64,000 nt of DNA. Source: an uncultured Spirochaetales bacterium. GTDB taxonomy: Bacteria > Spirochaetota > Spirochaetia > Sphaerochaetales > Sphaerochaetaceae. How positions within the stretch are numbered: the first letter of the stretch is position 1; each line of letters starts with the position of its first letter. The stretch lies in contig CALXYO010000003.1 of NCBI GenBank assembly GCA_944393005.1, positions 103,740 to 167,739 on the forward strand, read 5' to 3'. Of the stretch, positions 40,872 through 43,363 are shown piece after piece. The position numbers and the translations under genes are program-made. The notes under the pieces were generated by a model. That model searched no databases, was not told where the DNA came from, and saw nothing but the letters and a program-made list of their open reading frames with translations.

Positions 40872-41065
40872 GTGAACTACCACCACCTTAAAAGGTGGAA
40901 GCTTCGCCCTTCAACGGTCCATGACAATCGAGATTGCCTTTCATGAAGGCCTTTTCAATTGCTCTTCGGATCTCAGGTGCGCTTGTTTCGGTGCGTCCCA
41001 CACCTACATTGTTTTCATAGAACCAGATCATGTTGCGGGCAGCATGGACATCCCTGTCCATGTCA
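40872..41065 (-). ncRNA. Putative TnpB omega-RNA (reRNA) scaffold overlapping the tnpB 3' end
   Basis: Canonical position. Hairpins on the plus strand: CATGGACA/TGTCCATG (41043-41062), GCCTT/AAGGC (40936-40950), CAATC/GATTG (40925-40936) and the RE hairpin. The 5' boundary is an estimate. Confidence 0.55.
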
Positions 41066-42142
41066 TCAGCGCCACAGTCGCAATGATAAATCCTGTCACT
41101 CAGGGAAAGGCTGTTCAGCTTCCCGCAATGGGGACAGAATCTTGTGCTCGGCACTGCCTTGTTGAGAACGACGACATCATCCCTCCTCATGAGATCGCTC
41201 TTGACTCTGCCAAGGACTGAATGCTGGACATGTCCTGCAAACCATCCCTTATGCCAGTGTGTGAGCATCTCATCCTGGATGACCACTGTCCTGTTCTCTA
41301 CAAGTCCTGCAACGATTGCAGTTTGTCATCTTCTGGTATTCAACCCTTATCAGATGGAGAGTACGTGCATGACGCCTTGAGCCTTTTATCTGCCGGGCAA
41401 GTTTCTTCTGAAGCCTTTTGAGCCGCTCACTTTCTTGCACCGATGCATGTATCTTCTCTCATTCCGATGTGGTGAAGTCGGTCTCAATGCCGAAATCGAC
41501 ACCGATGACCTTGTTGTTCTTGCGTTTTGATTCGACCTTGTCCTTGTCAATCCAGCAGGTGACAGCCATGTAGTGGCCATCAGGCCTGTTGAGAAGCTTG
41601 ACATTAGCAATCTCATAATCTGGATTGCCATAGAACTGGTCCATTCCGTTCACTTTGAGCAGTCCTTTGATTCCCTGGAGCTTTATCCGGTTCATGCGTG
41701 GAATCTTGTGTGTCACGCCGAACTGTTTGAAGTCGAGGGATCTCAGCTCGCTGATGTATTTCAGGGAACCGACCTTCAAGCCTTTCTTCTTCCTTGCGGC
41801 AAGCACCCTTATGGAGTTCTTTATCTGGGCGTGTATCGTCTGTCTCAATGACTGGGGAAGATAGGCATACTCACATTCGATGTCGTTGCCATCCTTGTCC
41901 TTGTGGACAACAGTCTTTGATTTCGTGTCATAATCAAAGATGGAGGATGACTCGCCGGAATTGAGGATGGCATTGTAGCACCGCTTGCCTTCGACAAAGA
42001 GCATCTTCAGTTCTTCTTTCTGTCTTGCAGTGAGCTTGTTCCTCTGTATCTTGCACTGGAAGACACGGCAGACCTGACTCTCACGTTTTTCACGTGTCGC
42101 CTTCTTTGACTGGGCGATCTTCCTGTTCTTTTCAATGTTCAT
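40888..42142 (-). pseudogene. tnpB: IS200/IS605 TnpB RNA-guided endonuclease, inactivated
   Basis: RuvC-I GVDFG, RuvC-II region VIQDE, zinc finger CPHCG/CDCG, RuvC-III DRDVHAARN. In-frame TGA at 41459-41461 (TTSE*EKIH) and a frameshifting deletion near 41320 (KMTN / AIVAGLVEN). Confidence 0.92.
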
Positions 42143-42152
42143 ACAACAGTAC

Positions 42153-42368
42153 TCAGGCTTTGTATTCAGCTTCTTTCTCTGCCGCAAGCTCAGCTTTCAC
42201 ATCATCGGAAAGAGTGAGGGAGAAAGGAATTCTCTGCTGCATCACAACCTGACTCAGATAGAGATTCACTCCTGCTGTGAGAGTAAGTCCAAGTGATGAG
42301 AATATTTTCTCTGCTTCTTCTTTCACCTTTCTGTTCAATCTCATTGATATCATGATCGTATCTTTCAT
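42153..42368 (-). CDS. RelB/DinJ-family ribbon-helix-helix antitoxin-like protein, no toxin partner
   Basis: ISMRLNRKVKEEAEKIFSSLGLTLTAGVNLYL...RIPF; AGGAG RBS; stop 10 bp before the tnpB ATG. Confidence 0.85.
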   Translation of the reverse strand: MKDTIMISMRLNRKVKEEAEKIFSSLGLTLTAGVNLYLSQVVMQQRIPFSLTLSDDVKAELAAEKEAEYKA

Positions 42369-42394
42369 AAGTCAGTCTCCTTTTTTATAAGTCA

Positions 42395-42423
42395 ATACTA
42401 GCATAAATACAAATAATATGCAA
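42395..42423 (-). promoter_or_regulatory. Sigma70-like promoter for relB-like/tnpB
   Basis: TTGCAT-17 bp-TAGTAT on the minus strand. Confidence 0.45.
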
Positions 42424-42540
42424 TATAAATCAAATTATAATATATACAATAAATATACATACATCATATATTGATTTTCTTTTATAGTGATGAGACTGTG
42501 TATGATAAAATGAATATGCCATAAGGGAGAAGGAGATATC

Positions 42541-43317
42541 ATGGCATATTTCAGCTATGGAAAGAAACATATCTATTACGAAGAACACGGCAAAGGGACA
42601 CCTGTAATCTTCTGTCATGGCAACACTGCCTCTTCAAGGATGTTCTCTCTTCTCATGCCTCTTTACGAAAATAACCTGCATTGCATCCTCATCGACTTCC
42701 TCGGCTGTGGCAGGTCCGACAGGACTGCATCGTTTCCATCCGACATATGGATTGACGAGGCAAGGCAGGTTGACTGTCTTGCTCAGTATCTGGAGCTTGA
42801 TGAAGTCTCTCTTATAGGCACAAGCGGCGGAGCATGGGTGGCAATAAATGCGGCAATGATGATGAAAGGCAGAGTGTCTACACTGATCGCCGACTCATTC
42901 GACGGCCGTACATTGAACATCAATTTCTCTTCAAACTTGATAAAGGAAAGAGAAAGTACAATGAAAGATGAAGAGGCAAGAAGATTATATGAATGGTGCC
43001 TTGGTTCTGACTGGGAGGACATTGTCCAGAAAGATACGAAAGCTCTTCTCGAGTGTGCAGCTTCGGGGACTTCGCTGTTTGTATCTCCGCTATCTGCAAT
43101 AGAGTGTCCTGTTTTTCTGACGGGTTCTGCTGAAGACCTGATGTGCCGCAGCGGCATGGAAGAGGAATATGAGGAAATGAGGGAGATGATGGGCAATGCC
43201 TCGATCCATATGTTCTCACATGGAGGCCATCCTGCAATACTCAGCAATGCAGAGGAATTCGCTGAGATTTCAAAGGATTTCATCAAGAGACATGTGCCTC
43301 TTCAGATGATGACGTGA
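42541..43317 (+). CDS. Alpha/beta-fold hydrolase (passenger inside the IS element)
   Basis: HGNTAS, DFLGCGRS, GTSGG nucleophile, GSAED, GGHP; the stop codon lies 9 nt from the left-end hairpin. Confidence 0.9.
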   Translation: MAYFSYGKKHIYYEEHGKGTPVIFCHGNTASSRMFSLLMPLYENNLHCILIDFLGCGRSDRTASFPSDIWIDEARQVDCLAQYLELDEVSLIGTSGGAWVAINAAMMMKGRVSTLIADSFDGRTLNINFSSNLIKERESTMKDEEARRLYEWCLGSDWEDIVQKDTKALLECAASGTSLFVSPLSAIECPVFLTGSAEDLMCRSGMEEEYEEMREMMGNASIHMFSHGGHPAILSNAEEFAEISKDFIKRHVPLQMMT

Positions 43318-43363
43318 TTCACCTGACCACCCTGAATGGTGGCAGCTATCTCACGGATTTGTT

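Follow-up and report, generated by a model that had tools for sequence, protein, structure and literature searches.

An insertion of 2492 bp, found in a 64,000-nucleotide stretch of the genome of a chicken-gut spirochaete (GenBank assembly GCA_944393005.1, contig CALXYO010000003.1; the whole stretch is called the window here), interrupts a GNAT acetyltransferase gene and is very probably a mosaic, non-autonomous descendant of an insertion sequence (IS) of the IS605 type, i.e., of an element that encodes both a Y1 TnpA transposase and TnpB. The hosts of the IS lineage are uncultured gut Spirochaetales of a single genus, with ‘Candidatus Aphodenecus’ among them. Between the ends of the insert lie an intact gene for an alpha/beta hydrolase, a small gene of the ribbon-helix-helix (RHH) type and a decayed tnpB, and tnpA is missing. 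A description made earlier from the letters alone, the sequence-only reading, had called it an IS200/IS605-type, passenger-carrying unit without tnpA, which stands; its further proposals, that the hydrolase replaces tnpA and that the family is undescribed, did not survive the comparison with related elements presented below.

A precise insertion with IS605-type ends

When positions 40872-43363 were excised in silico, the sequence ...LYEKLGFIY was joined to TDCYNDSPLDRTIFMKKVLE and a stop codon, which restored a GNAT frame of 161 aa; no target duplication was seen. The sequence-only reading had made this same deletion, and a search for empty alleles, which it had recommended, bore it out: in two congeners (G011:C59 and G015:C11) the GNAT gene is contiguous, and BLAST alignment showed a gapless junction in which ...ACATAC is followed directly by ACGGACTGC... 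These alleles are 89% identical to the window locus at the nucleotide level over 731-850 nt. Metagenome contigs of diverged relatives likewise skip a block of exactly 2492 bp. Read along the minus strand, the left flank of the occupied site is ...GGGCTTTATATAC, the element then starts with AACAAATCC and ends with ...GGTGGTGGTAGTTCAC, and the right flank resumes with ACGGACTGC. The stretch is thereby confirmed as a discrete and precise insertion in the GNAT gene, 3′ of (T)ATAC. It is common to lineages whose flanks are 96-100% identical to those of the window and absent in species with about 90% identical flanks, and must therefore have been resident for some time. An open reading frame (ORF) of 118 aa and unassigned family (window 40456-40815) overlaps the GNAT stop by an ATGA; because the insertion separates it from the upstream part of GNAT, this ORF is severed from the GNAT promoter and from its translation, and it now adjoins the right end of the element on the downstream side.

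The ends have the organization known from the single-strand transposons of the IS608 group. Terminal inverted repeats are absent, and imperfect palindromes lie subterminally at both ends. The CCACC/GGTGG hairpins that the sequence-only reading had pointed out at both ends were indeed computed to fold as single-stranded DNA. At the left end (LE) the 8-bp stem is formed by CTGCCACC and GGTGG(T)CAG, with the T bulged, and cleavage falls 18 nt upstream of the foot of the hairpin; at the right end (RE) the stem CTTCCACC / GGTGGTGG is followed by TAGT and TCAC, and cleavage occurs after TCAC, 8 nt past the stem. In diverged relatives the RE stem carries compensatory changes (GTCGCC/GGCGGC in locus L018 and GTCACC/GGTGGC, in the comparison of L018 and L019). 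The loop of the RE hairpin contains the TAA stop codon of tnpB (40888-40893), and the coding sequence of tnpB, the binding site for TnpA and what is presumed to be the 3′ part of the omega-RNA fully overlap there. A scan of positions 40000-44500 against Rfam gave one sub-threshold match to isrI, and the curated omega-RNA families were unmatched.

The tetranucleotide guides upstream of the two hairpins allowed a check of the pairing rule. For IS608, Morero et al. (PMC5934647) show that guide A+16 pairs with target T-3 and A+17 with T-4, i.e., positions 1 and 2 are crossed; a further pair, position 4 of the guide with position 4 of the target, would follow from the sequences published for the guides and cleavage sites of IS608 (AAAG with TTAC, GAAT with TCAA). 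Applied to the guide ATAG of the left end, the rule predicts ATxC, and ATAC is observed; applied to GAAG of the right end, it predicts TCxC, and TCAC is observed. All six specified positions match, for which the chance is about 1 in 4096, and the sequence-only reading was correct on this point. The same junctions recur when ends are collected from the source genome and its relatives by blastn-short. All 17 left ends with different flanks sit after ATAC (16 from the hydrolase-bearing lineage and the hydrolase-less L019), with position -5 usually T, twice G and once A, and all 16 right ends with different flanks terminate in GTAGTTCAC. The copies with the same ends after (T)ATAC that the sequence-only reading had suggested looking for are thus present.

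The 3′ end of the hydrolase gene comes next after each of the 16 left ends of the hydrolase lineage, all of which are at different sites. This linkage and the exact empty site agree with the earlier claim that the ends and everything between them moved as one unit, and they rule out that the hydrolase is a host gene caught by chance between two IS remnants.

The autonomous parent and the mosaic copy in the window

A complete element of 2598 bp with three intact genes was found in the metagenome-assembled genome (MAG) of an uncultured Spirochaetaceae (locus L055, contig CALXOL010000007.1). Starting after ATAC it has the LE, then a hydrolase gene (255 aa) and tnpA (133 aa), both directed towards the LE, then tnpB (432 aa) in the divergent direction, and finally the RE with its terminal TCAC. 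The hydrolase thus lies downstream of tnpA and in the same direction, and by this comparison the order LE, hydrolase, tnpA, divergent tnpB, RE is that of the autonomous parent. The L055 TnpA contains the HVH and GYF motifs and scores 107 bits against the NCBIfam model transpos_IS200 (cut-off 55), and the intact L055 TnpB matches OrfB_IS605 and the TNB zinc ribbon; these family matches, with ends that obey the IS608 rules, rule out a new family. The search for a tnpA-bearing element with the same hairpins, also proposed earlier, was successful within the source genome as well, if partially: on contig C20 the 81 C-terminal residues of a Y1 transposase precede the hydrolase co-directionally up to the point where the contig stops. 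These residues are 98.8% identical to the L055 TnpA, and the C20 hydrolase has 81% amino acid identity to that of the window. The order tnpA-hydrolase-LE was further found in L013, L061, L062 and L067, and it holds down to 72% amino acid identity of the hydrolase, always after (T)ATAC; like L055, L013 and L067 contain the tnpA-bearing element with these hairpins in complete form.

The window copy differs from this parent in its middle part. Read along the minus strand, the order is LE, hydrolase on the opposite strand, AT-rich spacer, RHH gene, tnpB and RE (Table 1). Neither tnpA nor a remnant of it was found in 40872-43363 among the ORFs, by Pfam or by alignment to the parent; this agrees with the sequence-only reading, which had noted a complete hydrolase and no tnpA, and TnpA would therefore be needed in trans. 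Positions 5-826 of the copy (LE and hydrolase) are 85.5% and positions 1230-2492 (tnpB and RE) 95.6% identical to L055, whereas the 403 bp in the middle (AT-rich region, RHH gene and first tnpB codons) substitute for 491 bp of the parent (tnpA, intergenic region and tnpB start). It was this module of putative promoter and RelB-like RHH gene that replaced tnpA, and not the hydrolase, which lies between the LE and tnpA in the parent already. By these alignments, the window copy is a mosaic, tnpA-less and non-autonomous member of the IS605 group. What the sequence-only reading had observed was right overall, but it had omitted the RelB-like gene inside the element and the fact that tnpB is a pseudogene. 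In other copies the codon at 41459-41461 is GGA (with C at 41461) and the additional 20 nt TCTTGTTCGCAAGGTCATCC are present; intact TnpB of 424-432 aa is encoded in L063, L064 and L055. The fragments of tnpB in the window match Cas12f1-like_TNB.

Table 1. Coordinates of the element and of the interrupted gene in the window
Feature	Start	End	Strand	Evidence and remarks
GNAT, C-terminal 19 codons and stop	40812	40871	-	stop overlaps ATG of next ORF (40456-40812)
Right end (RE), with the presumed 3′ part of the omega-RNA	40872	40925	-	guide GAAG 40905-40902; hairpin 40901-40880; cleavage site TCAC 40875-40872
tnpB pseudogene, split into three ORFs	40888	42142	-	nonsense codon 41459-41461; 20-bp deletion after 41315
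RelB/DinJ-like RHH gene, 71 aa, directly upstream of tnpB	42153	42368	-	Pfam RelB 2.9e-10; NCBIfam RelB_DinJ 57 bits (cut-off 45.7)
AT-rich intergenic region, 172 bp, with divergent promoter-like sequence; part of the 403-bp module replacing tnpA	42369	42540		promoter prediction; module identity
Alpha/beta hydrolase, 258 aa, intact	42541	43317	+	Pfam Abhydrolase_6 E=1.7e-16; stop codon 46 nt from element tip
Left end (LE), 46 nt	43318	43363	-	begins AACAAATCC; guide ATAG 43349-43346; hairpin 43345-43323
GNAT, N-terminal 141 codons (interrupted host gene)	43364	43786	-	Pfam Acetyltransf_1 1.6e-20
Target/cleavage motif TATAC (core ATAC), left flank; also predicted TnpB target-adjacent motif	43364	43368	-	ATAC at 17/17 distinct left-end sites; empty alleles with ACATAC followed by ACGG

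RHH genes within IS605 elements, designated ‘Arc’, have been described to repress IS promoters (Moon et al. 2026, bioRxiv 10.64898/2026.09.24.754181), and archaeal pairs of RHH/MazE and TnpB are also on record (PMC10691335). By analogy, the RHH protein of the window copy may regulate the divergent promoters of tnpB and of the hydrolase. Promoter prediction gave a single weak match at 42443-42472 (+), directed towards the hydrolase, a yield not above that of shuffled sequence (mean 3.2). A role of the RelB-like protein as antitoxin of a genuine toxin-antitoxin pair was ruled out, as the toxin partner is absent: no RelE, ParE or YafQ gene was found beside the RHH gene, and its downstream neighbour is tnpB in the window and an ORF of 542 aa on contig C10. 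The latter locus (C10:62459-67771 of the source genome G000, locus L004) has a 91% identical AT-rich promoter and 71-aa RelB-like RHH gene; the 542-aa ORF behind them is unmatched in Pfam and NCBIfam and shows a weak RuvC-I-like match to TnpB (GCDIGTQTIA; BLASTP E=0.007), and may be a divergent gene resembling those of RNA-guided nucleases under the same regulator. A module similar to that on C10 is held by contig C6 of G015. In L063 and L064 the promoter and RHH module is about 99.5% identical to that of the window.

Four left ends (window, C20, the truncated copy on C6, and the contig end of C2), each followed by the hydrolase 3′ end, and three right ends were counted in the source genome, which by end type probably contains one autonomous copy, two RHH-type copies and one remnant. 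The truncated copy (C6:101356-104000, L003) has the LE after GATATAC and the last 131 codons of the hydrolase; it adjoins a Phd/YefM-Doc(Fic) toxin-antitoxin pair and neighbours an unrelated intact TnpB of 368 aa, with no right end found nearby. In the probable source metagenome the depth of the element is 3-6 times that of its flanks, and contig ends there also show the tnpB start of the tnpA type. Three independent assemblies (L063, L064 and L065) share the RHH-type architecture at this GNAT site, there with an intact TnpB of 424 aa, and it recurs at further sites (L012, L033/L014 and L066).

The tnpA-less form might also have arisen where it is now found, i.e., an autonomous hydrolase-tnpA-tnpB element would have hit the GNAT gene and the RHH module would later have replaced tnpA by homologous recombination, which would make trans-mobilization of the tnpA-less form unnecessary. 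We regard such a conversion in situ as rather unlikely, though some of the data fit it. The mosaic itself does, with its unequal identity to the parent in the hydrolase and tnpB parts, and so does the occurrence of the module before an unrelated gene on C10. The comparison with L063 (39061-45500 of the window) also fits: the flanks (3.9 kb) and LE are 100% identical, but the interior has diverged to 95.5% in the hydrolase and 93.6% in the tnpB region, and the RHH module is conserved (99.5-99.7%; 99.7% in this alignment), a pattern that would be explained either by gene conversion between element copies or by mixed assembly paths. However, the RHH-type architecture occurs at at least three other flanks (those of L012, L033/L014 and L066), and the hydrolase 3′ end of the window type was found at seven different sites; repeated independent conversions would be less parsimonious than transposition as a unit.

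A second alternative, that the assembly followed a chimeric path through a multi-copy repeat and that at this locus the gene arrangement or the damage to tnpB is spurious, appears very unlikely. The MAG consists of 20 contigs, other copies break contigs (the ends of C2, C16 and C20), Logan contigs fragment within the element, and in L063 an intact tnpB lies between the same flanks; yet the same gene order stands at the same site in the three independent assemblies L063-L065, the parent is complete in L055, and at 41461 no variant other than the nonsense base was seen in the sequencing run X1, with about three times the depth of the flanks.

Returning to the reading of the insert as a transposed non-autonomous derivative, several points weigh against it. 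Either the lack of tnpA or the lesions in tnpB could have come about at this site or reflect sequence assigned to the wrong copy, and the mismatch with L063 is for that reason the main caveat, both for transposition of the tnpA-less form itself and for placing the tnpB lesions at the GNAT locus. The cognate tnpA on C20 is cut by the contig end (81 residues are seen) and can only be presumed intact. Among the assembled contigs, no transposition intermediate, excision product of the same strain or transcript was seen, and a benefit of the hydrolase to the host is only presumed. The source genome also harbours a second, unrelated IS605-type family at C11:16.6-21 kb, C2:53.8-58 kb and C2:151.9-156 kb (L008-L010), with a TnpA that is 30-40% identical and a TnpB of 412-419 aa; one of these copies is intact and two have a degraded tnpA. 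It is unlikely that the TnpA of this family serves the hydrolase element.

The hydrolase as a passenger gene

The history of the hydrolase could be followed with the help of relatives that do not have it. Two congeners (L019 and L018) contain intact, multi-copy elements of canonical composition and 1825 bp, with a tnpB of about 69% nucleotide identity, which align to the parent along the LE and again from the 3′ end of tnpA through the RE. The sole extra DNA of the parent is a block of 773 bp, essentially the hydrolase ORF, flanked by the LE hairpin on one side and the stop codon of tnpA on the other; a spacer of 11 nt, which includes GGAGGA, separates the tnpA stop from the hydrolase start. 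Since these relatives exist, the hydrolase is a secondary acquisition. The sequence-only reading had named such a finding, hydrolase-less copies and a later insertion of the gene, as an argument against itself; that part came true, yet the hydrolase has since been propagated to many sites with the element and, as its distribution indicates, is real cargo. The gene is present in six loci of the tnpA type and seven of the RHH type. All four hydrolase copies of the source genome are IS-linked, and a paralogue outside an IS was not found there. A passenger gene unrelated to transposition thus lies inside the ends in copies at different sites, which is the mark of a ‘transporter’ IS.

The enzyme itself appears as an ordinary member of its fold. 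The nucleophile motif is GTSGG and the triad was assigned, from the sequence, as Ser95/Asp199/His230; 36 homologues all have Ser95 and Asp199, and nearly all have His230. The AlphaFold2 model (pLDDT 93.5) has the human valacyclovir hydrolase as its top fold match (TM 0.85-0.87), with small esterases as the best matches, and neither sequence nor fold searches gave a specific candidate for the substrate, the matches being to generic esterases, haloalkane dehalogenases and C-C hydrolases. Between IS-borne copies dN/dS is 0.19-0.24, which shows, at the level of codon comparison, purifying selection on the hydrolase. Homologues with 55-64% identity are chromosomal, e.g., in the Firmicutes gene order phoH-ybeY-dgkA-abh-era-recO, and this context suggests that an ordinary cellular esterase gene was captured once.

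It could be argued that the hydrolase is instead a working part of the transposon life cycle (e.g., in anti-defence, addiction or as a helper of transposition), as the short GGAGGA spacer, the maintenance of the gene down to 72% amino acid identity, always with the IS, and the purifying selection would fit such tight coupling to tnpA, but this seems improbable to a high degree, given that hydrolase-less relatives are intact and multi-copy, that frameshifted or truncated hydrolases occur in IS copies with their ends kept (L013, L033 and C6), that the closest homologues outside the IS stand in operons of the housekeeping type, and that the fold is that of a generic small esterase.

The course of events that would account for the insert as a derivative of an IS605-type element begins with an ancestor of the lineage that gained an ORF for a serine hydrolase, exactly in the interval from the LE hairpin to the stop codon of tnpA, a capture that would have created a tnpA-hydrolase operon. 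The resulting 2.6-kb element (LE, abh and tnpA in one direction, tnpB in the other, RE) would then have spread by the single-strand mechanism: TnpA would bind the subterminal hairpins, the 4-nt guides would pair with ATAC on the left and TCAC on the right, and the top strand would leave as a circle and be pasted 3′ of ATAC without duplication. In the form seen in the window, the tnpA segment would have been exchanged for the module of promoter and RHH (RelB/Arc-like) gene, which would have given the hydrolase a promoter of its own, and this form would depend on the TnpA of an autonomous sister copy, of which the one on C20 is the candidate. Its tnpB is dead owing to the nonsense codon and the 20-bp deletion. 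One may go further and picture a gene vehicle of two components, an autonomous IS605 that co-expresses a selected esterase and a tnpA-less, RHH-regulated derivative with its own esterase promoter that is mobilized in trans and retained by homing through TnpB and omega-RNA, with selection maintaining the enzyme and not the transposase; this extension is tentative, and we consider it possible but on balance doubtful.

Relation to known elements and significance

IS200/IS605 elements are usually viewed as minimal, cargo-free transposons. The statement in the sequence-only reading that they carry tnpA and tnpB only was, however, out of date, as rare cargo in IS200/IS605/IS607 elements was described in 2023 (Altae-Tran et al., PNAS, PMC10691335) and RHH ‘Arc’ genes in 2026. 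The elements of Altae-Tran et al. likewise have extra genes within the boundaries of a TnpB-bearing transposon; the examples (PMC10691335) are mainly in serine-recombinase (Ser-3) branches and concern HTH, RNA helicase or WhiA-like genes, whereas here the element is of the Y1 type and the passenger a serine hydrolase of metabolic type, with many insertion sites, selection and a defined pair of parent and derivative. The Arc-containing IS605 elements share with the window copy a small RHH gene inside the IS beside an intergenic promoter and tnpB. The RHH gene described here scores as RelB/DinJ, stands immediately before tnpB in the same direction and occupies the position of tnpA, while many Arc elements have arc alongside tnpA.

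The closest mechanistic parallels are IS608 of Helicobacter pylori and ISDra2. With these the parent shares a Y1 HUH tnpA divergent from tnpB; imperfect subterminal hairpins, one of them with a bulged T; guides of 4 nt directly 5′ of the hairpins that pair by the crossed rule; duplication-free insertion on the 3′ side of a tetranucleotide; and cleavage 18 nt before the foot at the LE and 8 nt after it at the RE. It differs in the target, ATAC here and TTAC/TTGAT there, and in the hydrolase gene of 768-777 bp between LE and tnpA; the window copy differs further in lacking tnpA, in its RHH gene and in its dead tnpB. At the level of sequence, the lineage has every defining feature of the IS605 group, and the window copy lacks only the encoding of TnpA. 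In being tnpA-less, with family ends intact and TnpA expected in trans, it resembles the IS1341-type and PATE-like derivatives, but those hold tnpB only or nothing, whereas the window copy keeps the gene for a passenger enzyme and a regulator.

The new aspect is an IS605 element of the Y1 type whose passenger, an enzyme gene, probably shares an operon with tnpA, has been propagated to many sites and is under selection, and which is accompanied by a transposase-less derivative with a putative RHH regulator. The canonical element (1825 bp), the element with the added enzyme gene (2598 bp) and the transposase-less, putatively RHH-regulated derivative (2492 bp) form a well-delimited natural series, with many insertion sites, an exact empty site and a selected cargo gene, and provide a tractable system for how much, and where, a single-strand transposon carries passengers, for the way in which a passenger becomes part of the tnpA operon, and for how an RHH regulator and retention by TnpB and omega-RNA behave in non-autonomous copies. 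The series is also relevant where small carriers of DNA are to be engineered from IS608-like or TnpB systems.

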